Shown: piece after piece, positions 12,104 through 63,757 of the stretch
Position numbering within the stretch: the first letter of the stretch is position 1
Layout of the letters: every line of letters begins with the position of its first letter
Assembly: GCA_030390025.1 (NCBI GenBank)
Contig: CM059431.1
Coordinates: forward strand, 119,104,001 to 119,168,000
Direction of reading: 5' to 3'
DNA from: Squalus acanthias
Taxonomy: Eukaryota
DNA: 64,000 nt
Position numbers and translations under genes: made by a program
Notes under the pieces: generated by a model
Seen by the model: only the letters and a program-made list of their open reading frames with translations
What the model was told of the DNA's origin: nothing
Databases searched by the model: none

Positions 12104-12416
12104 TGGTTATGGTCTGAAATTGTTGAACTCAGACCCATCTTTTGTTTCTTTACTTGTCCCATTACAATCCCCTTTTGATTTGCGCCCTCATCCCTTTTGT
12201 CATTTAATCACTCTTGCCTTCGATGCTATCACAGACCTTCCTTTGTGTTCTTTCCTCCCCCCATTCCCCCCCGCCCTTTCCCTGCCTCTATACTTGCTTA
12301 AAACGTGTTACACCTCTAACTTTTTCCAGTTCTGATGAAAGGTCATCGACCTGAAACGTTAACTCTGTTTCTCTCTCCACAGATGCTGTCATTTTCAGCA
12401 TTTTCTGTTTTTATTC
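12104..12416 (+). mobile_element. Penelope-like element terminal-repeat (pLTR) fragment, family 1, with an inverted 5' piece
   Basis: 12131-12416 matches 58665-58952; 12104-12130 is the reverse complement of GAGTTCAACAATTTCAGACCATAACC (58553-58578). Confidence 0.75.
12328..12364 (+). ncRNA. Minimal type-I hammerhead ribozyme (PLE-associated)
   Basis: AGTT-CTGATGA-A-AGGTC-ATC-GACCT-GAAA-CGTT-AACT: conserved core, 5-bp stem II, palindromic AACGTT stem III, stem I AGTT/AACT. Confidence 0.7.
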
Positions 12417-12974: not shown

Positions 12975-13056
12975 AAGACAAAACATGCTGCAAATACTCA
13001 GCAGGTCAGGCAACATCCGTGGAGAGAGAAACAGAGTTCATGTCTCAGGTCAAGAT
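12975..13056 (-). mobile_element. Short PLE family-1 fragment nested in the Harbinger derivative
   Basis: ATGCTGCAAATACTCAGCAGGTCAGGCAACATCCGTGGAGAGAGAAACAGAG is the reverse of the pLTR tail at 56035-56095. Confidence 0.6.
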
Positions 13057-15559: not shown

Positions 15560-18500
15560 TACTGCTCAACCTTCTTGACTTCTTTGAGGAGGTATCACCC
15601 TAAATGGACTGTGGATAACCCTATGACATGGTGTACCTAGACTTCCAAAAGACATTTGACAAAGTCCCACATGAAAGGCTGTCAGTCAAGCTCAAAGCAG
15701 TGGTGGCTCAGAGTAAACCTTGGGAATAGTTTGCTGGTCAAAATGTAGAGAGCAACAAATACTCATTAGAAGAGTTAGGCTAGGGTGGGGGAAGTAATCA
15801 GTTGGATGCCCCAGGGCTTAGTGTTAGAACGGCCATTGTTTTCCCATTTATATAAATGATACAGATGCAGAAATCTGATGCAAAGTACTCACATTTGCTG
15901 ATGATACCAAACTGGGAGGAGCAGCTCAAAAATTACAGAGTGAGTTAGACAAAATAAATATGTGAGTAGATAAATGGCAGATTACTGTAATACAGAGAAA
16001 TGATATTGGCTAAGTAAAGAAATTAAAGAAAGTATCCAACTCAAAACAAGGACATATAAGGTAGCCAAAGTTAGTGGGAGGATAGAAGATTGGGAAGTCT
16101 TCAAAAGACAACAAAAAGTAACTAAAGGATTGATTAAGAAAGGGAAAATAGACTATGAAAATAAATTAGCAAAAAATATAAAAACAGATAGCAAGAGTTT
16201 CTATAGTTATATAAAAAGAAAAAGGGTGGTTAAGGCCAACGTAGGTCCCTTAGAGGATGAGACCGGGAAATTAATGGTGGGAAACATGGAGATGGCAAAA
16301 ATGCTGAACAAATATTTTGTTTCAGTCTTTACGGTAGAGAACACTAAGAATATCCCAACACAGGACAAACAGGGGGCTCTAGTGGGGGAGGAGCTAAATA
16401 CGATTAAAATTACTAAGGAATTGGTACTCAGTAAAATAATGGGACTCAAGGCGGATAAATCCCCTGGACCTGATGGCTTATATCCTAGGGTCTTGAGGGA
16501 AGTGGCAGTAGGAATTGTGGATGCTTTGGTAATAATTTTCCAAAACTCCCTGAACTCAGCAAAGGTCCCGGCAGATTGGAAAACTGCTAATGTAACACCC
16601 TTATTTAAAAAGGGTTGTAGGCAGAAGGCTGGAAATTATAGACCAGTTAGCCTAACATCTGTGGTGGGTAAAATTTTGGAGTCTATTATTAAGGAGACAG
16701 TAACGGAACATTTAGATAAACATAATTTAATAGGACAAAGTCAGCATGGCTTTATGAAGGGGAAGTCATGTCTGACAAATTTGCTCGAGTTCTTTGAGGA
16801 CATAACGTACAGGGTGGATAAAGGGGAACCAGTGGACGTAGTGTATTTAGAATTCCAGAAGGCATTCGACAAGGTGCCACATAAAAGATTATTACTCAAG
16901 ATAAAAAAATCACTGGATTGGGGGTAATATTCTGGCATGGGTGGAGGATTGGTTATCTAACAGGAAGCAGAGAGTTGGGATAAATGGTTCATTCTCGGAC
17001 TGGCAACCAGTAGCCAGTGGTGTTCCGCAGGGGTCGGTGCTGGGTCCCCAACTCTTTACAATCTATATTAACGATTTGGAGGAGGGGACCAAGTGTAACA
17101 TATCAAAGTTTGCAGATGATACCATGATGGTAGGGAAAGTAGAGAGTGAGGAGGACATAAAAAACCTACAAGGGGATATAGACAGGCTGGGTGAGTGGGC
17201 AGAGATTTGGCAGATGCAATACAATATTGGAAAATGTGAGGTTATGCACTTTGGCAGGAAAAATCAGAGAGCAAGTTATTATCTTAATGGCGAGAAACTG
17301 GAAAGTACTGCAGTACAAAGGGATCTGGGGGTCTTGGTGCAAGAAAATCAAAAAGTTAGTATGCAGGTGCAGCAGGTGATCAAGAAAGCCAATGGAATGT
17401 TGGCTTTTATTGCTAGGGGGATAGAATATAAAAACAGGGAGGTATTGCTGCAGTTGTATAGGGTATTGGTGAGACCGCACCTGGAGTACTGCATACAGTT
17501 TTGGTGTCCATACTTAAGAAAAGACATACTTGCTCTCGAGGCAGTACAAAGAAGGTTCACTCAGGTTAATTCCGGCGATGAGGGGGTGGACATACGAGGA
17601 GAGGTTGAGTAGATTGGGACTCTACTCATTGGAGTTCAGAAGAATGAGAGGTGATCTTATTGAAACATATAAGATTGTGAAGGGGCTTGATCGGGTGGAC
17701 GCGGTGAGGACGTTCCCAATGATGGGTGAAACTAGAACTAGGGGACATAATCTTAGAATAAGGGGCTCCTCTTTCAAAACTGAGATGAGGAGAAACTTTT
17801 TCACTCAGAGGGTAGTGGGTCTGTGGAATTTGCTACCCCAGGAAGCTGTGGAAGCTACTTCATTAAATAAATTTAAAACAGAAATAGACCGTTTCCTAGA
17901 AGTAAAGGGAATCAGGGGTTACGGGGAGCGGGCTGGAAATTGGACATGAGTTTGAGTTCGGATCGGTCAAGGCCCTGTGGGTGGCGGAGCGGGCCCAGGG
18001 GCCGAGTGGCCTGGTCCTGCTCCTGCTTCTTGTGTTCTTTAGAGTTGAGGTTGGATCAGATCAGCCATGATCTCATTGAATGGCGGAGCAGGCTCGAGGG
18101 GCCGATTGGTCTACTCCTGCTCCTATTTCTTATGTTCTCTTGTGTTCTTATTACATTTAATGCAGGTGCAAAGTATTTGCAAGTGCAGAAGAGGGAAAAA
18201 TAAGTAACACATGTATTCCATTCATGGTGTTGAAATAGCTCAGGATGAAATAGAAAGAGTTTTGGTAGACTTTACTCTAAACATGTCTAACTAATGCAAG
18301 CCAAGAAACAATAAAATCAATGGAATATTGAACAACATCGCCAAAACAGTTGAATTTAAGTCAGATACAGTCATGATCAACTGCACAGTGCTCTGTTCAG
18401 ACCACACCTTGAGTACAGTGTCCAGTTCTGGTCGCTGAGACAAAAGGGAGACACTCAGGTGCTGGAGATGAGGGATGGGCAATGAGGCAGATCCTTGCTA

Positions 18501-25706: not shown

Positions 25707-25779
25707 AATAAAAGCAGAAAATGCTGGAAATACTCAGCAGGTCAGGCAGCATCTGTGGAGAGAGAAACAGAGTTAACGT
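25707..25779 (-). mobile_element. PLE family-1 pLTR fragment fused to a DeuSINE tail (25780-25880, +)
   Basis: Reverse of AACGTTAACTCTGTTTCTCTCTCCACAGATGCTGCCTGACCTGCTGAGTATTTCCAGC; followed by ACAACAGTGACT...GCTATATAAATGCAAG. Confidence 0.75.
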
Positions 25780-26028
25780 TACAACAGTGACTATACCTTA
25801 AAAAGTACTTCATTGGCTGTAAAGCGCTTTGGGACGTCTAGTGGTCGTGAAAGGCGCTATATAAATGCAAGACTTTCTTTTTATTAATGAATGGAAAATC
25901 ATGGGCTCAGGATGTGCAATTCCTGATATGTTCTCCTGCTGCTCCAGGAGAAAATCTCCCCAATTGCGTGCGGTTTTGGTCACCCCATTATAGAAAGGTT
26001 ATAAAAATAATGGAAAAATGTGTAGATT

Positions 26029-33926: not shown

Positions 33927-35110
33927 ATGGGGGCTGTACTGGCATGCCACCTCGCCCGCCAGGATCTACGGCGGAGGGAGCGTAGGCAGCGATAAAGAAG
34001 GGAATATGTGTGCAGAGGGAAGAGGAGGGCCTTTAGGGTCCTCAACAGGAGGCCTTACCCTCCGAGGGTATTCCGAGAGCACTGTTCCTACCTCCAATTC
34101 AGCGAAGAGCAGTGTATTAGAAGGCTTTGCTTCACCAAGGAGGTGGTCACAGAATTTTGCCACCTCCTCCAAACAGACCTTCAGCCTCAGACCAGGGCAA
34201 CCAAGGCTCTCCCAGTTGCAGTCAAGGTCACTGTGGCCCTCAATTTCTTCACCAGTGGATCCTTCCAGTCTGCAACAGGAGACATAGCTAACATCTCACA
34301 GTTCGCCGTCCATCGCTGCATCCGGGTGGTTACTGAGGTTCTCTACAGCAGGGGGAAGGGATTACATTCACTTCCCGATCACCAGAGAGAAGCGAGACAA
34401 GTGTGTATATGGCTTTGCCAGGATAGTGGGCTTCCCCATGGTGCAAGGGGCCATCGACTGCACCTACATGGCTTTGCGGGCATCGCATAACAATCCTAAG
34501 ATCTTCCATAATCGCAAAGGCTACCACTCACTTAATGTGCAGTTGGTGTGCGACCACAGACAGTGAATCCTTAATGTCAATGCCCGCTATCCTGGCAGCA
34601 GCCATGATGCCTTCATCCTGCGTCAGCACTCTTCCAGCCGCCATGTCAAGCTCAAGGGTGGGCTGCTCAGAGACAAGAGCCATCCGCTCTCCACCTGGCT
34701 CATGACTCCCCTCCGCAACCCCAACACTCATGCCCAGCATTCATAATGAGAGTCATGCCACCACCAGGAACATCATCAAGCAGACCATTGGTTTATTGAA
34801 GCAATGGTTCCGCTGCCTTGACCGCTCGGGAGGAGTCCTCCAGTACACACAAGAGCGGGTGTCCCATTTCGTGGTGGTCTGCTGCATGCTCCACAACTTG
34901 GCCATCATGATTGCACAACCCTTGCCAGCAGGGATTGCAGGACCACCTCAGGAGGAGGGCGAGGCAGAGGAGGATGAGGATGAGGAGGAGGACGAGGAGA
35001 AGAGGATGAGGATGAGGAGGAACAGGAGGGAGGGAGGAGGCAGCGAGACAATCGGCCTTCTGGACAGGCTGTCCGTGACCGGCTCATCGGACTCCAATTC
35101 ACATAAATGA
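33927..35110 (+). pseudogene. Harbinger DDE transposase (HARBI1-like) pseudogene
   Basis: ALNFFTSGSFQ, GFPMVQGAIDCT, NRKGYHSLNVQLVCD, ARYPGSSHDAFIL, W LLRDKS, RNIIKQTIGLLKQWFRCLDRSGG, CCMLHN and an acidic tail; stops, frameshifts, and K at the catalytic E position. Confidence 0.9.
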
Positions 35111-41675: not shown

Positions 41676-41782
41676 GAAGGAAAGAGCGGGATTTTCAATG
41701 GCCAGCCGTATGTTTCTCACTTAGAAAACAGGTGACCAGCAATAGGAAATCGGAGGAAGGAACCGCTTGGCTGACCATTGAT

Positions 41783-41935
41783 TGAGAGGTCGCACAACAC
41801 CAGGTTATAGTCCAACAGTTTTATTCGATAGCTCCGAAAGCTTGTGATTTCAAATAAAACTGTTGGACTATAACCTGGTGTTGTGCGACCTCTCAATTTT
41901 GTCCACCCCAGTCCAACACCGGCATCTCCGCATCA
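41783..41935. mobile_element. Fold-back PLE family-2 terminal fragment
   Basis: Perfect 45-bp inverted repeat (41781-41825 / 41853-41897); 11-bp TSD TGACCATTGAT (41772-41782 / 41936-41946); homologous to 47294-47360. Confidence 0.8.
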
Positions 41936-42550
41936 TGACCATTGATGCCCAATTTCAGTCGGGTCTGTAAATGTGCGAGCAGCCCGCCCACCTGAAACAG
42001 GTGGGAGGCTGTTTAAATATGCAATTTAGTGTCCTATGCCAGTTATAAGACCCCAATTTCAATTTTCAGGTTCAATGAGACCTCAAAGAATAGTCCAAGA
42101 AGCTTTCAAATTTTTTTGTGGTTGGCCCAGAAGCAGCCTACACCACAATGCCCTATCTCAGGAACAAACTTGGAGAAATCAGTGCCTGTTCAGAAATCTT
42201 GCCGTATAGGTCGGCAGCTTTTTGGTTTATTTAAATAAGCGTTCTGCAAACTTGAAATAATTCAACCTCTTTACTGTGTGAAAAATCAGGGCCTTTTTAA
42301 AAAAAATCGGCTTGTGTCGTTTTTAAAACATGGATATGCTGATTTGTTAAAAAAATCAGAGACTTTGGACAGAATTTTCCTTACCTAGGCGGGTGGTGTG
42401 CGTGCAGGTCCCGTGGAGGGTCGGAACCGTGTGGTTCTGATCATCCCGCTCCTCAGAGCGACTTTCTGTTAATGGCGCCTATTAAGGCAGGCCTGCGCAT
42501 TTCCTGGCCCGATTAAATGGTGCGGATCTGATGACGTCATCGACAACGCA

Positions 42551-43726: not shown

Positions 43727-44567
<841 letters not shown>

Positions 44568-44660: not shown

Positions 44661-47293
44661 CACCTTAAATTATTTAATTTAAATAATCTGTCCCCATGTA
44701 CACAGTCTAATCCCTTCATCATTTAAAATACTTCAATACTGCAGTTTCCACTGATGCCGTGGTGGACTGCAAGCTCCCTAATTCCTCTCGCATTTCTGTA
44801 CAGATGCAGAAATGGCACTTCTGTATAATTTTCAACATACCACACTGCGATCTCTGAACAGTTTTGAAGGACTGCATGATGCTTTTCTTCTTATAGATGA
44901 GCTCCCGCTATAACCAGTTCACATAAGGTAGGAATCCTGGACCCTTTAACAGAGGATCCTCTTGGTCTGACCCTCCATTTGGGTTTTTCCTGCCCCTTCA
45001 AAGCCACTTCCACTTCTTCTTCGTCACTTGAGCTGTGTGCCTCACTACTTGTTCCCTCCTTACATCCCCATGTGTTTCCTCTGAGGGCGATGTGTCTGAG
45101 CTGGTACCTGTAGCTGTGTGTGATAGATGCTTCTGTTATGGCTCAGTTTCTTGTTCATTTCTGGTGGCATGTATATCATTCTAGGAGAGCCCAACACAAA
45201 AAGAAAAGGAACATATGATATTCGGGTGCTAAACAGGAAATAACTGAGAACACAGTATTCATGCCAAAACATTGGATGACATGCATCTACTGCTGGGCAG
45301 AATTTCTTCCTCATCCGCTCCCATAACCAATGGATATGGGAGATAGCATTCAGTCATTCAATCCCCTCTGCCATGCTTGTTGCACAATGGAACATAGAAG
45401 AGGATTCCCCTCAGTTCTAAATATGGGCTAGCCCCCTCTGATTCATCTCTTCCAGCAGACCATCAGAACTATAATCATAAAAGGGGCAGTTCTGTCCATG
45501 TGCATCTGCTGACTTTCCATAGCTGAAGCCAAAAAACAAGTTTTGTTAAAATAGAGCAGCAGTTCTTCAAGGGCTGCTGCTCTCATCATTCCCCTGCCCC
45601 CTTCTATTCAGTCTTTGCTGCTTCCATGCAAAATTTAAAGGGAGCACACTCAAATTATCATAATGAGATGACCATGTTGAATCTGATGAGGTGGACTCCC
45701 CTTTTCACTTGCATGAATGATTGCTGGAATGCAGCAATCCTAACTCCATCTTTGTCAGAATCAGTGAATTGGCATTTTTACCTATTCCATTTGTCAAAAC
45801 AATTCTCACAGCATTAGTTCTTTGCAGCTCCTATCTTCCTTTTTTGTTCTCTATTCCCTCTTCTCCTTACTGGTAGCAATTCTCTTCTCTATTATTTCTC
45901 CTTCAAGCGCCGCATGTCCTGGCTACTCCAATTTAACTGTTCTCCGCTGTTTCTACCAGCTGTTTATTTTCAGAGTTGAGACAGGATTTCTTACTATTGG
46001 TCTCTGATTTGGTAACAATTGGTTTCGGAATATGTTTTGTCAGCTAATCAGAAAGGTTATTGAAGTTACAATTTATGACCTAGATTTCCATTCCCCCTCA
46101 CCCCTTCCATTTCCCCCATTGCTGACTTTTCTGTGGATCTGGGGATGGAGAACCACTTTGGGACACACTCCATGGTGTACTTGCCTTACTGAGCAACCTA
46201 TCTATTGCCTGCTCCTTGGGCCTAGCAGTGGGCAAAGGGAAATGCAAATTAGGGAAATATGTTGTCTGACATATTGCCTGTGATTTGCATTTTCCGATGC
46301 TGAATGAAAAGGAAACAATTTAGGCCCAAACATTCAGCATTCTAAGCAGAAAGGGGCTCGAATGTTTGTTTAGGACAGTAACACTATTGCAATCGCTCTT
46401 GGAGTAATGATGTGAACAGGCCTAAAAGGTGGGTCTAAAATGTTTTGCAAAAAATTGCCTGTTTCCCAGGCAGTATAGAAGCTGCTTGTAGCCTTACACT
46501 GCAACAAGCCTCCAAGGTTTTCCACTGCAAAACGCCACCCTGCTGAACCTCACAACGGAAGGTGGGTGTCTGTCTGCAATATGATAACGATCCCGGGACC
46601 AGGGGCACATTTCTGTTGCGGACAGAGACCTCCCCTCCCCCTTCCCCCCTCCCCCTTCTCCCCCCCACCCCACCCCACAGGATGCATCCCAATTTACCAA
46701 GTGCAGAAAGTCCAGGTTAGCAGAGACAGCTCAAACTTCAGATGTGATTTGTAGGCAATTCCAGGAAATGCATAAAATAACTCATCGGCAATTCACTTAA
46801 ATTAATTATCTGATTAATAGCATTTGGTGGGGAGGAGGGATAGTAAATAGTTGCTTTCATCTGGCTTGTGAAAATTGAACCATAAGGCTTATATTAGAAA
46901 GTGAAATCTATGTTAAAATATTCCCATTTTAGCATTAACTACACTTGCCAATGTGCAAACATCTCCTGGGATCACCATGCAATATTTGAACTGAGGCCTC
47001 ATCAGAAGCTCTTTTTAGCTGCTCAAAAACTGAGCATACCCATATGCTCCCCATTAATGTCAAATCATTTATTTAAACCCTCTTCTTTTCCCTGCAATCC
47101 TATCCCTCCCTTCAATTTTCTACCCCTGCTCTCCTGAAGCTACTGGCTCGGGTTGGGGTACAGTTCCACGGATGCTGACCATCCTCCAATACTTCTGCCA
47201 TGCAGTCAAGTGTGAGCCTGGACAGTCAGTGTTAGAGGGCTACTTGAACACTGAGAGTATAAAAGCTTAATCCAATATCGCCCTCTCATGATG

Positions 47294-47639
47294 TGAGAAG
47301 TCGCACAACACCAGGTTATAGTCCAACAGCTTTATTTGAAATCACAAGCTTTCGGAGCGCTGCTCCTTCGTCAGGTGAAGTGAAGAGATGCATATAGGCA
47401 CAGCATATATAGTCAGAGAACACTGCCAGATGATTACAGTTAATCTTTCTAACTGCCCTTTATCACACCTCGGCAGAGAGATAATCACGGCAATCGAAGG
47501 TGTGGATGGTGTCCAAACAGGTCAGTCAGGAAAACATTACATCAAAGACAATGAGGTGGGGTCACAAGGGGTCAAATGTGGCAGATGCTGGGGTCTGTAT
47601 GGAAAACAAAAAACTTTTTAGCTGGAAATCACAGCAGGT
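47294..47639 (-). mobile_element. Composite PLE-derived insertion
   Basis: 12-bp TSD CCTCTCATGATG (47282-47293 / 47640-47651); family-2 pLTR plus about 70 bp resembling the family-1 tail. Confidence 0.8.
47342..47378 (-). ncRNA. Minimal type-I hammerhead ribozyme (PLE-associated), intact core
   Basis: Minus strand TCAC-CTGACGA-A-GGAGC-AGC-GCTCC-GAAA-GCTT-GTGA: stem I TCAC/GTGA, stem II GGAGC/GCTCC, palindromic AAGCTT stem III. Confidence 0.8.
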
Positions 47640-48972
47640 CCTCTCATGATGACCAAACATGTTCACTTTCCAGGAGGAGTCACTGAACAAGGGTGATATT
47701 TTCACTCTTTAGCAAGGGGTACTGAGGCTAGTTCTTGGACCCTACCACTGCCCATCTTGAGGACAATTAACCCATCACAGACCAGGAATCCTGGAGCCTT
47801 CTATCTACTCATCCATAATAACGGTTGTGGTGGCCACCCAACTCCCCAGTCAAGCTACCAGGACTATGAAGAGTGAAGCTACTTCACAATCGCTTCATTA
47901 TCCATATATCAGCGTTACGTGTTCGAACCCTTCTGTGCTTACTGCCAGCTACACAAATGTGCTTACTTCTTACTTCTCAGAAAGCCTAGCATATGTGAAT
48001 TAATTAGGAATTAACTGTGACACACTGATTTGCATGTCATCATTTAGTGCAAGCTGTGACAATTGTACTGCGCTTTATTTATATTTATAATAGATAACTG
48101 GCAGGACTCTGCCAACAATCAACATGCTGGAGACATCAAAGGAAACAAAAAAAAACACTGCATCAAGATTTTAATCATTTAGAAATATGGTTTAAAGACA
48201 GGTACACATACAGTGAACAAAAACAACTGACCCATGAATTTCCCAAGTAATTAGAACCCAAATGCAAGCTTTGCTAAAACGGCTTAGATTAGATAATTAG
48301 ACTTTTGTGGGTGGCAATACATGCAAATCGGTTCTGCATCTTTGGTGCAAGGTTTTGTCTGTTTCTCTGTGTGGGTGAACAAAATTGAATGCAAACGCTC
48401 AAAGACCATAATACGTGATGTCAAGCTCCCCATTCAAACTTTGTCTGCGTGGTATGTCAAATAATACAAGTTGTGACAGAATCTAAATATTAATAAAATT
48501 TATACTCTATCACCAGTGGAGCTTTCTACCTGTCCGCTCAGTAAACATTCGTTTTGTTCAGCCAAATTCGAACAATTATTCATTTTTTGGAGCTTAATGC
48601 AGAGGTAGGAGGGCATTATGTGACAGTAACACAATTACGTTGGATCAGTTGATGCCAAAAACTAAGAGGCGGTTGCCATTTCAACTCTCAGGCTGTGCTG
48701 CTGACACTGTGCAAGTATGATATATTAAATAAAGCAAGTTCTCAGTGGTTCAAGTTTAAAATTTCAGCCCTCAGAGCTTTTCTCAGGTACATGTGCTGTG
48801 AAACAGTCTGTTCGGCATATCAAAGCCATTTGTGGCAAATAAGTTAACCCTTGAGACACAATATAGAAATTCCAATGGTGCATCAGGACAAAACCCCTGC
48901 TCACCATTTGTGCTTCCCCCTAACCCCATCCCAAAGCCTGGGGATGAGGTCATCAACATATGGGGGCTGGGT

Positions 48973-51900
48973 TGAAGGGATAATTACAAGTCCTAGCCCT
49001 TTCGGACTACCCCAGATCAGGCGTATTCCCCAGATGTTCACCTTCAACTAATGTTAGCGGTATCCGGATCCCATAAGACGCTTAATTGGGTCTAAATGTC
49101 AGACTACCTCTCCCTAAAGGAAAGAAATGGTCTAAAGATGTTACCGTCCTCCGGATAGTACTTTTAATGAGTTTAACTAGACTGTAACCTTCCAGATATT
49201 AAGAGGGTCCGGAATACCCTCCAGAATTCTGCAACTCCTCTCTGAAGAGTGTACAGAAATTGAGTTTGCAAGATGATACAGAAATACTCTGTGAGACAAT
49301 TCTAAAAATATATAGATTTATCAAAGAACCGACATTTATGGCAATTGCAACTTTAACCGTTCAAAATACAAATAGCTTACATTTCTTATCAAAGATCCTT
49401 ATTCTCAAATCTTAACTTGGTTACATTTCCACACTTCTACTTATTTCTTAATCCAGAATATCCACCAAAATCAAATACCTTGATTACCCGAGACTCAATG
49501 TTAAAATCTTACAGAGCATGTCTGTGAAGTTGAGAAACGCTTGTCTTCCCAGCGACTTCTGCTTTTCTGTTTGAAAAGGTCTATGTTTTATACCTTTTTT
49601 TGGGTGGTTTATCCTTTGAAGTTTTCCTGATGATGTAAGCTAATTATTTCAAGTCATTCTTTGCTGACTTTGCTCTATTCTTTATTGTCATTTCAGCTGT
49701 CAGCTTTTAGACTTGTCTCCTGTTTAGGTGTTTCCAAAAAACCATCATAAAATGTTTAATATCGATTTATCTATTTGATGCCATTCTTAGGAAGTCTTTC
49801 TATTGAATTTCTAATACTACTTTAACTGGTTATTATCAGACGTTGTGACTCCTACATGTTCCAAGTTTAACACATAAACAATGTGATTGCTTGATGCATC
49901 CATTGAAGTAATATTTTCAAAGTCGTCTTGTTTGTGTACCTTTTACATTTGTAAATACTTCATCAAATGAGAGGGAGGAACTGAAAGAAATCAATATTTG
50001 TAGGGAAATAGTATTAGGGAAATTGACGGGATTGAAGGCCGATAAATCCCCAGGGCCTGATAATCTACATCCTAGGGTACTTAAGGAAGTGGCCCTAGAA
50101 ATAGTAGATGCATTGCTGGTCATCTTTCAAAATTCTATAGACTCTGGAACAGTACCCATGGATTGGCGGGTAGCTAATGTTACCCCACTATTCAAAAAAG
50201 GTGGTAGAGAGAAAGCGAGGAATTATAGACCGGTAAGCCTGACATCGGTAGTGGGGAAAATGCTAGAGTCCATTATAAAAGATGTAATAGCAGAGCACTT
50301 GGAAAACAGTGACAGGATCGGACAAAGTCAACATGGATTTACAAAAGGTAAATCATGCTTGACTAATCTACTGGAATTTTTTGAGGATCTAACTGGTAAA
50401 ATAGATAAGGGAGAACCAGTGGATGTGGTGTATTTGGACTTTCAGAAGGCTTTCGATAAGGTCCCGCATAAGAGATTAGCGTGTAAAGTTAAGGCACATG
50501 GGATTGGGGGCAAGGTATTGACTTGGATAGAGAACTGGTTGGCAGACAGAAAGCAAAGAGTTGGAATAAATGGGTCTTTTTCCAAGTGGCAGGCAGTGAC
50601 TAGTGGGGTACCGCAGGGATCGGTCCTAGGACCCCAGCTATTCACAATATATATTAATGATCTAGATGAGGGAATTGGATGTAATATCTCCAAGTTTGCA
50701 GATGACACAAAGCTGGGTGGGAGTGTGTGCCATGAGGAGGATGCCGAGAAACTCCAGTATGATTTGGACAGGTTGGGTGATTGGGCAGAAGCATGGCAGA
50801 TGCAATATAATGTGGATAAATGCGAGGTTATCCACTTTGGTGTCAAAAACAGGAAGGCAGATTATTATCTGAATGGCAATAGATTGGGAGAAGGGGAAGT
50901 GCAACGAGACCTGGGTGTCCTTGTGCACCAGTCGCTGAAGGTAAGCATGCAGGTGCAGCAGGCGGTTAAGAAGGCAAATGATATGTTGGCCTTCGTAACG
51001 AAAGGGTTCGAGTACAGGAACAAGGATGTCTTGCTGCAGTTTTGCAGGGCCTTGGTGAGACCACATCGTGAGTATTGTGTGCAGTTTTGGTCACCTTATC
51101 TGAGCAAGGATGTTCTTGCCATGGAGGGAGTGCAGCGAAGATTCACCAGGCTGATACCTGGGATGGCAGGAATGACGTATGAGGAGAGATTGGGTCGATT
51201 GGGCTTATACTCGCTGGAGTTTAGAAGAATGAGAGGGGATCTAATTGAAACTTATAAAATTCTAACAGGACTAGACTGACTAGATGCAGGAAGGATGTTC
51301 CCGATGGCCAGAGAGTCCAGAACCAGGGGTCACAGTCTAAGGATAAGGGGTAAGCCATTTAGGACTGAGATGAGGAGGAATTTCTTCACCCAGAGAGTGG
51401 TGAACCTGTGGAATTCTCTACCACAGAAGGCAGTAGAGGCCAATTCATTAAATATATTCAAGAAGGAGTTAGATATATTTCTTAAAGCTAAACGGATCAA
51501 GGGATATGGGGAGAAGGCAGGGACAGGGTACTGAATTTGGATGATCAGCTATGATCTCATTGAATGGCGGAGCAGGCTCGAGGGGCTGAATGACCTGCTC
51601 CTGCTCCTATCTTCTATGTTTCTATGTTTCTATCTAGGGTGTTCCATACATTTCTTATTTACTTCAATTGGTTTTTATCAGACCTCGGGACTCCATATTT
51701 CAAGCTTAACATTTAAACTATTTGTTCAGCAGGCGTTTCTTTTACTTGATGTCATTTCTTCAAAGCCTTCTGTAGGTATCATATTTACAACATGTAAATT
51801 GAAAACTCTTTAACTCAGTGTTTACTTGTTTTCTAGCTATCTCAATTGGTTGCATATTTTATTATGTTTCCTGTCTTATTTGATGTTATATTATGAAGGC

Positions 51901-55954: not shown

Positions 55955-56100
55955 TAAAATATTGCGTTTGTTGGAAATCTGAAATGAAAACATAAAATAT
56001 GTCCTGATGAAGGGTCATCGGCCTGAAACATTCACTCTGTTTCTCTCTCCACAGATGCTGCCTGACCTGCTGAGTATTTCCAGCATTTTCTGTTTTTATT
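55955..56100 (+). mobile_element. PLE family-1 fragment with an inverted 5' piece and a decayed hammerhead
   Basis: CTGATGAAGGGTCATCGGCCTGAAACATT at 56004-56032; 55955-56000 is the reverse of downstream pLTR sequence. Confidence 0.7.
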
Positions 56101-58305
56101 TTATAATTTTAATATTTTATAGTTTGCTCGAACACCATCAAATGCAAAATAATCTATCAAACACCTTTACTGAATTCAAATAAAATCCAGCAATTGATAT
56201 AGAAAAAGACAGTTGCATGCTTTGAATGAGATCTTTATCCTCCAAAAAGTTGTTCATTCTCTTTCAGATGCTGATTGATCTGCTGTCAATTCCAATATTT
56301 TCAGTTTTTATTTCAGATTGCTAGCATTTGCTGCTTTTTCTTTTTCTCATCCATGAATTACCTGGCACGCCACCTTGTAGATATTTGCAGTAAGAAAATG
56401 AGAGTGCTTCGTGTACAGGCACAGCAGCTGTGCCAGATCACAACAGAAACCGGAACAAAATTACCAATGAACTATACTGTTGATTATCAGTTTTATAAAA
56501 CACTAATGCCCAGCTGTGGGAGGAGGAATCACTAAAGGATCAATCTCAGGGTCAGTTTCTGAGCAGAATCGACATCAAAGTGTCAGCCGAGGCTAGCTCA
56601 ACAATCCTGCCAGGCTGAACATCCGGTGATACCAAAAGAAATTTCAGCTGTGGAACAGAGTAGTGTTCTGAGACAAGCGTAGTCAGCAGATTGACAATAG
56701 CGACAATGTCCCCCAAATTTTGGGGGTTTCACTCTGTCGGCAGAGGTGCAGCGGAGCTGAACCCCCTCCTCCTGCCTGCCCTAGGCCTAAGTGGGAGACC
56801 CTGTCCCAAATCCTGGGAAAGGGGCCACTTGCATGGTCAGGGCAGATGCATCATACCTGCAAGGATGCATCAATGGCATCCACCCCAAACTGCAAGAGGG
56901 AATTTGGTAATGGCTTCAAAGACACAGTGAGGCTCCAGAGAAAATCCACTTCTTTGGATCTTCAGCTCCCAATGAAGCAAATAGGACTTTCTGGGAAGGT
57001 AATTGACCCTCTCTGGAATTGATTGCCTTCACCCTGTAAAGGTTTGGGGCCTTTCTAAAGGTCTCAACAGAAGTTGGCTGAGGCCTACGAAGGGGGTAAA
57101 GAGCATAATTTCCTGGGGTAGCCTAGCAACTTTCCCAGACATGCCCACGGCCTCGCCCCAGACCAGAATTTAAACGATCAGTCTAACCAGTGGAATAAGG
57201 TTCTGCTCCATATTCCTGGCTTCAAGGGTGGAAATCAGGCGTTTCACTCCCTGAGATCCCAGGAATTTCAGAGCCATCCTTTTCAACCAGCAGTGCCTAC
57301 TGTAATGCGAAGATGTAATGTTCCATTGCATTTGATGTCAAGCAGGCTGCAAGGCATTAAAAATGTTTTTGGTCTCCTGGTTCTCAAGGGCATTCCCAGT
57401 CTTCTAATGTCTCAAGATGCACAGTAGGAAAACAGTTGCAGACAACTCCTGACACAGATGACTTAAGTGTCCCTTCAGTAAGGGAAAACCAAATATTTTG
57501 ATACTGTGAGATTTCTACAACTGAAATGACATCCTTATAGTTTACTCTTTTTTCTGAGTACGCTATGCCTCTTATATAAGAACATAAGAAATAGGACCAG
57601 GAGTAGGCTATTTGGCCCTTCAAGCCTGGTCCACCATTCAATAAGATCTTCTACCTCATCTCCACTTTCCTGCCCTATCCCCATATCCCTTGATTCCCTT
57701 AATATTCAAAAATCTATCGATCTCTGTCTTGAACATACTCAACGACTGAGCCTCCACAGCCCTCTGGGGTAGAGAATTCCAAAGATTCACCACCATCTGT
57801 GTGAAGAAATTTCTCCTCATCTCAGTCCTAAATGGCCGACCCCTTATTCTGAGAATGTGATCCCTGGTTCTAGACTCCCCAGCCAGGGGAAACATCCTCC
57901 CTGCATCTACCCTGTCAAGCCCTGTAAGAATTTTGTATGTTTCAATGAGATCACCTCTCATTCTTCTAAACTCTAGAGAATATAGGCCTAGTCTACTCAA
58001 TCTGCCCTCATAGGACAATCCCCCCATCCCAGGAACCAGCCTGGTGAACCTTCGCTGCACTCCTTCTATGACAAGTATATCCTTCATTACGTAAGGAGAC
58101 CAAAACTGCACACAATACTCCAGGTGTGGTCTCACCAGGGCCCTATATAATTGCAGTAAGACGTCTTTACTCTTATACTCAAATCCTCTTGTAATAAAGG
58201 CCAGCATACCATTTGCTTTCCTAATTGCTGGCTCTACCTGCATGTTAACTTTCAATGATTCGTGAACAAGGACACCCATGTCCCTCTGAACACCAACATT
58301 TCCCA

Positions 58306-58952
58306 GAGGTCTTTCCTACATTGGGGAGATCAAACGCAGATTTGGAGACCGTTTTTGCAGAACACCTCTGTTCAGTCTGTAACGGTGACCCCGAGTTTCC
58401 AGTCGCCTGTCACTTTAATTCTCCGCTCCACTCCCACTCTGACCTCTCTGTCCTCGGCCTCTTACACTGTTTCAGTGAAGCTTAACGTAAGCTCGAGGAA
58501 CAGCACCTCATCTTTCGATTAAGCACTTTACAGCCTGCTGGACTTCAACATCGAGTTCAACAATTTCAGACCATAACCTCTGCCCCTATCATTTTTTTAT
58601 TTTTTCCCTCTCTCTCTCACATGGCAGCTGTCAATCATTCTGCCATCACCATTTACACTTCATCCAGAGCCATCTTTTGTTTCTTAACTTGTCCCATTAC
58701 CATCTCCTTTTGCCTTGCACCATCATCCCTTTTGTCTCTTAATCTCCCCTGACTTCCATCCTATCACAGACCTTCCCTTTTGTTCTTTCCTCCCCTCCCC
58801 CCTTTCCCTGCCCCTACACTTGCTTAAAAACCTGTTCCATCTCCAGCTTTTTCCAGTTCTGATGAAGGGTCATCGACCTGAAACGTTAACTTTGTTTCTC
58901 TCTCCACAGATGCTGCCTGACCTGCTGAGTATTTCCAGCATTTTATGTTTTT
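58306..58952 (+). mobile_element. PLE 3' fragment: GIY-YIG endonuclease C-terminus plus pLTR
   Basis: YIGEIKRRFGDR / FAEHL..V...PVACHFNS..HS..DL...RKLEEQHLIFRLSTLQP.G / NIEFNNF; TSD ATTTCCCA (58298-58305 / 58953-58960). Confidence 0.88.
58855..58891 (+). ncRNA. Minimal type-I hammerhead ribozyme (PLE-associated)
   Basis: AGTT-CTGATGA-A-GGGTC-ATC-GACCT-GAAA-CGTT-AACT. Confidence 0.7.
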
Positions 58953-59944
58953 ATTTCCCAATCTTTCACCATTTAAAAAATACTCTGCTTTTCTATTTTT
59001 CCTAACAAAGTGGATAACTTCACATTTCTCCCCATTATGTTCCATTTGCCGTGTTCTTGCCCACTCACTTAGCCTGCTTATATCCTCTTGAAGCCTCCTT
59101 GCATCCTCCTCACAACTTACATTCCCACCCAGCTTTGCATCATCAGCAAACTTGGATATTTTACATTTGGTCCCCTCATCCAAATCATTGATGTAGATTG
59201 TGAATAGCTGAGGCCCAAGCACTGATCCTTGTGGTACCCCACTAGTTACAGCCTGCCAACTCGAAAATGACCCGTTTATTCCTACTCTCTGTTTTCTCTC
59301 CGTGAACCAATCCTCAATCCATGCTAATATATTACCCCCAATCCCATGAGCCCTAATTTTGTTTAATAACCTCTTGAGTGGCACCTATAGAATGCCTTCT
59401 GAAAATCCAAATACACCACATCCACTGGCTCCCCCTTATCTATTCTGCTAGTTACAACCTCAAAAAATTCTAACAGATTTTTCGAACACGATTTCCCTTT
59501 CATAAATCTGTGTTGACTCTGCCCAATCCTATTATTATTTTCTAAGTGCCCTGTTACCACGTCCTTAATAATAGATTCTAGCAGTTTCCCTACTACTGAT
59601 GTCAGGCTAACTGGTCTGTAGATCCCCATTTTCTCTCTCTCTCCTTTCTTAAATAGTGGGATTACATTTGCTACCTTCCAATCTGCAGGAACCATTCTAG
59701 AATCTATGGAATTTTGGAAAATGACATCCAATGCACCTACTCTCTCTCTAGCCAACTCTTTTAAAACCCTAGGATGTAGGCCATCAGGTCCATGTGATTT
59801 ATCGGCATTCAGTCCCATTAATTTCTCCAGCACTACTTTTTTACTAATACTAATTTCTTTCAGTTCCTCATTCTCGCTAGACCCTTGGTTCTCCATTATT
59901 TCTGGGAGGTTTTTTGCGTCTTCTTCCATGAAGACAGACACAAA

Positions 59945-63197: not shown

Positions 63198-63757
63198 CAC
63201 AGTTTTGGTCTCCTTATCTAAGGAAGGATATACTTGCCTTGGAGGCGGTGCAATGAAGGTTCACTAGATTGATTCCTAAGATGATAGGGCTGTCCTATGA
63301 TGAGAGATTGTGTAGAATGGGCCTATACTCTCTGGAGTTTAGAAGATTGAGAGGTGATCTCATTGAAACATACAAAATTCTGAAGGGGATTGACAGGGTA
63401 GATGCTGAGATGTTGTTTCCCCTGGCTGGAGTGTCTAGAACTAGTGGGCATAGTCTCAAGATAAGGGGTAGGCCATTTAAGACTGAGATGAGGAGGAATT
63501 TCTTCACTCAGAGGGTTGTGAATCTTTGGAATTCTCTGCCCCAGAGAGCTGTGAGTGCTGAGTTTTTGAGTATATTCAAAGCTGAGAAAGATAGATTTTT
63601 GGACTCTCGGGGAATCAAGGGATATGGAGATCGGGCGGGAAAGTGGAGTTGAGGTCGATGATCAGCCATGATCTTATTGAATGGCGGAGCAGGCTCAAGG
63701 GGCTGTATGGCCTACTCCTGCTCTTATTTCTTATGTTCTTATGTGCTTATGTTTCTT
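63198..63757 (+). mobile_element. CR1 3' fragment inside an older CR1 remnant (about 62970-63860)
   Basis: IPKMIGLSYDERLCRMGLYSLEFRRLRGDLIETYK... plus 3' tail. Confidence 0.9.

Follow-up and report, generated by a model that had tools for sequence, protein, structure and literature searches.

At positions 47639 to 47294 of the minus strand, the window (the whole analyzed stretch of 64,000 nucleotides from Squalus acanthias) contains an inserted element of 346 bp, which is located between 12-bp direct repeats. The 3' end of this element is formed by a compact cassette consisting of a TATA box, a hammerhead motif and an AATAAA hexamer (Table 1). An earlier note had described the cassette, and all the motifs that it listed were found in place on the minus strand; the ends of the element, the target-site duplication, the initiator and the tail are additional to it. 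The exact downstream border is ambiguous by three nucleotides, because matching ends at 47291 in 48 contigs of run X2 and in nine contigs of run X15. Contigs of X2 reach both junctions, extending only 22 and 25 letters inward where 31 are needed to count as bridging, and no empty-site joint for the insertion was listed. A search for ORFs in the element found none, and its CpG observed/expected ratio is 0.41 compared with 0.35 for the window.

Table 1. Features of the inserted element, its flanks and a second local copy (positions within the window; + numbering refers to the predicted start).
Feature	Position	Strand	Basis or remark
Target-site duplication, upstream copy (CATCATGAGAGG, 12 bp)	47640..47651	-	Sequence comparison of the flanks
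346-bp element, 5'-truncated copy of a high-copy repeat family, without ORF	47294..47639	-	Depth and sharp edges
5' segment resembling the sequence downstream of a family B hammerhead	47603..47639	-	Score 29 versus a maximum of 28 among about 3000 random windows
TATA box TATATATG (fits TATAWAWR), first T at -30	47404..47411	-	Motif match
Initiator TCACTTC (YYANWYY), predicted +1 at 47381	47377..47383	-	No variant at or above 4% in four runs
Minimal type-I hammerhead (+4 to +40)	47342..47378	-	4-bp stem I, 5-bp stem II, extra A after A9
AATAAA hexamer (+46 to +51)	47331..47336	-	Sole listed variant AACAAA at 0.1-6.7%
GU-rich stretch, 18-27 nt past AATAAA	47304..47313	-	Placed as a putative downstream polyadenylation element
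Target-site duplication, downstream copy (CATCATGAGAGG)	47282..47293	-	Length 9-12 bp, as its first 3 nt (CAT) are possibly part of the element
Second copy of the family 3' end, fold-back	41781..41935	.	Inverted piece 41781-41828, direct piece 41831-41895 and 40-nt tail 41896-41935

Remnants of other mobile elements are frequent in the window. It is rich in reverse transcriptase (RT)-bearing LINE remnants (16004-18024, 49912-51608, 57576-59944 and 63199-63750), which are decayed and 64-81% alike, and it contains a broken piece of a DDE_Tnp_4 (Harbinger-like) transposase (33996-35110, plus strand). An (AG) microsatellite, almost perfect and about 244 units long, extends from 44022 to 44510.

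The repeat family was surveyed in 24 listed sequencing runs using 31 sampled words of the element. Part of the element is present in 20 of these runs, and at least 74% of the sampled words occur in 18; the latter bear the organism labels A to F, apart from one unlabelled run, and the holders come from 10 studies. Two of the runs, X19 (share 0.23) and X20 (share 0.10), are on record as RNA. All figures on variants and depth are derived from four runs (X1, X2, X10 and X15), each of which consists of contigs. In X2 the summed depth, which does not equal copy number, is about 17 in the single-contig flanks and, in bins wholly inside the element, climbs from 1.3e5 at the 5' end to 5.5e6 near the 3' end, with sharp edges on both sides. 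This contrast, the edges and the rising gradient show a very abundant, 5'-truncated family. The family is also young, as 8632 of the 10617 X2 contigs placed on the element are at least 95% alike.

The hammerhead motif itself is complete. On the minus strand stem I is formed by UCAC (47378-47375) and GUGA (47345-47342), and the core consists of CUGACGA (47374-47368), an extra A (47367) and GAAA (47353-47350). Stem II pairs GGAGC (47366-47362) with GCUCC (47358-47354) and is closed by the loop AGC. A palindromic AGCU, part of AAGCUU (47351-47346), occupies the place of stem III, and the CUU triplet predicts a cut between 47346 and 47345. Thus the core CUGANGA...GAAA...UH closed by helix I, which defines type I, is present together with the extra nucleotide between 9 and 10.1, the pair G10.1-C11.1 and palindromic 15.2-16.2. 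These are the published features of the minimal hammerheads (min-HHR) of Penelope-like elements (PLEs), and the assignment made in the earlier note, a minimal type-I hammerhead of PLE type in a terminal repeat, stands as judged from the motif.

The window contains a second group of hammerheads, here called family B to distinguish it from family A of the 346-bp element. Its members are located on the plus strand at 12332, 56004 and 58859, with remnants on the minus strand at 13011-13051 and 25707-25783; the copy at 56004 has a broken stem I and a broken palindrome. A descriptor for minimal type-I hammerheads, a check proposed in the earlier note, gave three matches in the window (the 47342-47378 site, 12332 and 58859) compared with a mean of 0.02 in 100 dinucleotide shuffles, which were run with the AG microsatellite removed. 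The second proposed check was negative: Rfam yielded no family at the gathering score and no hammerhead model at E<=10 for the motif. Folding of the motif was also unremarkable in comparison with shuffles (z +0.24, +0.30 and -1.18), and both results could speak for a chance resemblance. Stems I and II are nevertheless part of the minimum-energy fold of 45-nt and 71-nt pieces, and a weak monomer fold is expected of the PLE minimal class (PMC4209133). The hammerheads of family B show the same geometry as the element with different stems: 94% of the cells pair and six of nine pairs are changed on both sides, in a comparison of four sequences from families that are perhaps only distantly related. 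The excess of descriptor matches and the identical geometry of family B make a chance likeness exceedingly improbable, and we rejected it for the motif; catalysis is a separate question.

Within the family, with a threshold of at least 4% in any run, one of 11 invariant core positions varies, compared with both of the two free positions (p=0.038). The varying core position is U4, whose exchange for C reaches 14% in X1 and 8% in X15 and is reported to reduce hammerhead activity (PMC3088659). The free positions are N7 and U17, the latter changed to C at 26% in X2. The ribozyme region as a whole is no less variable than the remaining element (4 of 37 versus 23 of 309 positions, p=0.51). A G-to-A change in stem I occurs at 4-10% with no partner change listed, and insertions are located in or at loop II. 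The single compensatory pair within the family was found in a sister contig, present once each in X1 and X10, which combines U4C with a C-G to U-A change closing stem II. The earlier note had regarded the retained CpGs as a sign that the copy may still be competent. Variants at 4% or more affect just one of the ribozyme's three CpGs, at C7, and because most family members keep them too, their retention is the norm of the family and indicates youth, not selection.

The copy under study is a monomer with no partner ribozyme in cis. GUC and AUC are the best cleavage triplets reported (PMC9217987); the CUU triplet of this copy is non-optimal. The palindrome duplex of a homodimer has a computed energy of -6.5 kcal/mol, and the 6-bp palindrome is also able to pair A14 with U17, which would not correspond to the active core. 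For complete folds we obtained -20.7 kcal/mol for the active dimer, -30.5 for an alternative dimer and -11.6 for each monomer, all nearest-neighbour energies that leave out core contacts. PLE minimal hammerheads are described as inactive in monomeric form and weakly active when dimeric (PMC4209133), the hammerhead of an Anolis PLE needed protein for cleavage and was not required for insertion in vitro (PMC11167929), and one of nine Xenopus retrozyme dimers cleaved (bioRxiv 10.64898/2026.07.22.740005).

The intact core and the three preserved CpGs could also mean that the host has kept this copy as a functional promoter, terminator or ribozyme. We consider this very improbable: thousands of family contigs have almost the same sequence, and the intactness of the copy therefore reflects youth, the site lies among decayed LINE and transposon remnants, and no host gene was identified adjoining it. 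As it contains neither an ORF nor a partner ribozyme in cis, the copy is most likely an inert passenger. The lone copy is real, well preserved and ordinary, nothing about it indicates activity, and as one among very many truncated insertions it carries little weight by itself.

A second copy of the family 3' end is located 5.4 kb away and is flanked by a duplication of 9-11 bp (41772-41782 and 41936-41946). Its direct piece begins inside stem II, so its ribozyme is incomplete and the 5' half of the hammerhead core is missing. The 40-nt tail at its end is optional, as it is absent from the 346-bp element; loose ends in all four runs continue beyond 47294 into this tail. The family thus exhibits inverted 5'-truncated copies, 5' truncation, a variable duplication, an optional tail of 30-40 bp and no poly(A) tail. 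The combination of tail, inversion and duplication is the signature of PLEs (PMC3846280; PMC8557442). Membership in this group rests on non-coding hallmarks because no ORF for RT or a GIY-YIG endonuclease linked to the family was found in the element itself, in exact-pattern scans of metagenome, viral and prokaryote collections or in a search with the tail peptide. The peptide read from the tail of the 41.8-kb copy had one match, a Gordionus repeat protein of 4818 aa, which gave no tblastn match to the window and was dismissed as chance.

Comparison with known systems shows which parts of the cassette have precedents. Most PLE minimal hammerheads occur singly and derive from truncated elements (Cervera & de la Pena 2014, PMC4209133), and the present motif shares with the min-HHR of metazoan PLEs the type-I topology, the 4-bp helix I, the extra nucleotide 9/10.1, G10.1-C11.1 and palindromic 15.2-16.2. 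In contrast to the Schistosoma families covered by the same source, where helix II has 7-8 bp, it has 5 bp here, and, set against the min-HHR described there, U17 is the majority nucleotide in the present family. The pseudo-LTR of Pen2a_Av from Adineta vaga (Arkhipova et al. 2013, PMC3846280) likewise has a TATATATA-type TATA box, 20 bp and a TCACT initiator, and resembles our family in its optional tail (31 bp there, 40 here), an inverted copy and a 9-bp duplication; unlike the 346-bp copy, the Pen2a_Av element contains an ORF. The accessible part of this account does not mention a ribozyme, AATAAA or polyadenylation. In Poseidon PAc of Anolis carolinensis (Frangieh et al. 2024, PMC11167929) a hammerhead is also located at the end of the pseudo-LTR, and genomic copies terminate past the cut site at either of two points; these define a tail, interpreted by the authors as two RT start sites. 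Cleavage of PAc requires protein, and its ORF begins at stem II, whereas no ATG is present from +1 to +88 here. Finally, animal non-LTR retrozymes (PMC7229834) are likewise non-coding and related to pseudo-LTRs, with a unit length of about 350 bp and a hammerhead of type I; the mean length of retrozymes in one chondrichthyan is 363 bp (bioRxiv 10.64898/2026.07.22.740005). Retrozymes are defined by at least two tandem units bearing ribozymes, however, while the present case is a single dispersed copy with a tail and a duplication.

The promoter-like motifs are placed with regard to the predicted A+1 at 47381, which precedes stem I by three bases. The earlier note had predicted a start at the 5' edge of the ribozyme, and the initiator motif at this position agrees with it. 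Counted from this +1, stem I would begin at +4, the cut would fall at +36 and AAUAAA would start at +46. The TATATA run (47411-47406, minus strand) and the initiator are separated by a spacer in which six of 20 positions vary, compared with one of eight in the TATA box and none of seven in the initiator. TATAWAWR, initiator and CUGANGA in combination occur once in the window and in none of 100 shuffles, a count that is optimistic because the pattern was written after viewing the 47342-47411 site; TATA box and initiator alone give three matches in the window versus 0.57 in shuffles. A sister loose end with another spacer retains the TATATA run at -31 (three contigs with a median length of 17, the far end being thinly supported). 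The same arrangement of TATATATA, 20 bp and TCACT was reported in 2013 for the rotifer Penelope repeat (PMC3846280), and the one PLE promoter that has been dissected by experiment, in D. virilis, is internal and has no TATA box (PMC2377424). A step in depth at the 5' edge of the ribozyme in X1 and X15 was rejected as an indication of a transcription start: the label RNA is a guess for these runs, and X10, guessed to be DNA, has the same step. A match to a sigma-70 promoter is at chance level and irrelevant to a eukaryote.

The AAUAAA hexamer is conserved at 93% or more in the four runs. Taken alone it is weak evidence, with a chance of about 1.2% per 30-nt stretch in shuffles and 93 occurrences in the window versus 53 in shuffles. 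Beyond the cut the 346-bp copy continues for 52 nt, of which the last 37 nt lie behind AAUAAA; in the tailed 41.8-kb copy, with its additional 40 nt, the corresponding lengths are 92 and 77 nt. Because both pass the cut and the hexamer and end without poly(A), the RNA that was copied was not polyadenylated there and was either uncut or re-ligated. No description of AAUAAA behind a PLE hammerhead was found in the literature searched, a body that leaves most subscription papers, Repbase-type entries and preprint supplements outside, and the terms shark and AAUAAA are absent from two supplement files of PMC4209133. The promoter layout (2013) and the hammerhead class (2014) have already been published; what may be new to the literature is the putative poly(A) signal that immediately follows the ribozyme.

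Family B shows that the layout of TATA box, ribozyme and AAUAAA is not general, because no AAUAAA lies on the same strand close behind its ribozymes. Pyrimidine tracts ending in CAG come after the B repeats and resemble 3' splice sites. Upstream of one B repeat we found a broken ORF remnant (58290-58575, plus strand) of 51 aa that reads YIGEIKRRFGD...EHL and resembles the second half of a GIY-YIG endonuclease. This putative identity rests on the motif, because the remnant had no meaningful Pfam match, Atlas leads were below 0.9 and no homologue was found at E<=0.001. The palindrome of family B is AACGUU (12355-12360, plus strand), and U17 is present here too. In both families the 6-nt palindromes (47351-47346, minus strand, and 12355-12360, plus strand) let A14 pair with U17 of the partner strand, and such pairing may nucleate dimers while holding them inactive.

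The likeness of the first 37 nt of the element to the 3' end of family B suggested a further reading, in which the family is a non-autonomous, retrozyme-like composite of a B-type 3' end and tail joined to an A-type repeat. Longer copies would then carry two different hammerheads about 325 nt apart and could excise a small RNA. In agreement with this, one X10 contig covers 47331-47641 and prolongs the B-like sequence by about 30 nt further upstream to the expected B-type cut site, and the 5' part of the element also occurs in high copy number (depth 1.3e5 in X2). The 30 of 49 loose letters shown in this one contig do not include the upstream ribozyme, however, and the palindromes of A and B do not pair with each other (-0.9 kcal/mol, compared with -6.5 and -5.5 for the homodimers). 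In addition, no end-to-start joint of the element was listed in the four runs, whose contigs show presence and not absence, and no tandem array was found at the locus. We therefore regard a composite origin as unlikely.

The element very probably belongs to a young Penelope-like family of very high abundance and was inserted as a 5'-truncated copy that comprises just the terminal pseudo-LTR region. In the tandem arrangement of an intact element, RNA polymerase II would initiate within this repeat at about 47381, and the hammerhead would be located within the first 40 nt of the RNA. According to the PLE literature, the cut at +36 would occur only after AGCU has paired with a second hammerhead, and cleavage would probably be slow, as a dimer or with the help of the element's protein. 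As the ends of the copies suggest, reverse transcription would start past the ribozyme, either where the tail-less copies end or 40 nt beyond, with an uncut read-through RNA or a re-ligated circle as template; a circle model has been proposed for PLE hammerheads (PMC4209133; review PMC6765202). Premature ending of RT would have left the 346-bp stub.

Compatible with this explanation is a proposal that concerns the intact members of the family: the repeat might function in the manner of a retroviral R region that carries a ribozyme as switch, comprising the start at +1, the cut at +36 and the poly(A) signal at +46. Uncut RNA would be a capped and polyadenylated mRNA. Cut RNA would lose its cap in the 5' repeat and its poly(A) tail in the 3' repeat, and could circularise and become the template of RT. 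The textbook spacing of TATA box and initiator, both steady around a variable spacer and, in a few contigs, with TATATA held at -31 over a different spacer, is consistent with this, as is the conserved AAUAAA followed by a GU-rich stretch; a circle would also explain the copies that cross the cut site and lack poly(A). On the other hand, the missing hexamer in family B, the U17 of both local families set against the favoured GUC and AUC (PMC9217987), and a palindrome that can pair A14 with U17 (-6.5 kcal/mol), presumably outside an active core, weigh against it. In Anolis, moreover, the cut site coincided with neither the beginning nor the end of any RNA-seq read, and insertion in vitro took place without cleavage (PMC11167929). 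An R region of this kind is a tentative possibility, and a real cap/poly(A) switch, with a working signal at +46 and a circularisable cut RNA as the template for reverse transcription, seems rather doubtful from the motifs.

If true, the switch would explain why copies cross the cut and AAUAAA without poly(A), and it would allow a direct test of the purpose of PLE hammerheads. As a young family for which exact RNA ends are predicted at +1, +36 and about +62 to +81, it is in any case a convenient test case for the circle model (PMC4209133) versus an uncut read-through template (PMC11167929).
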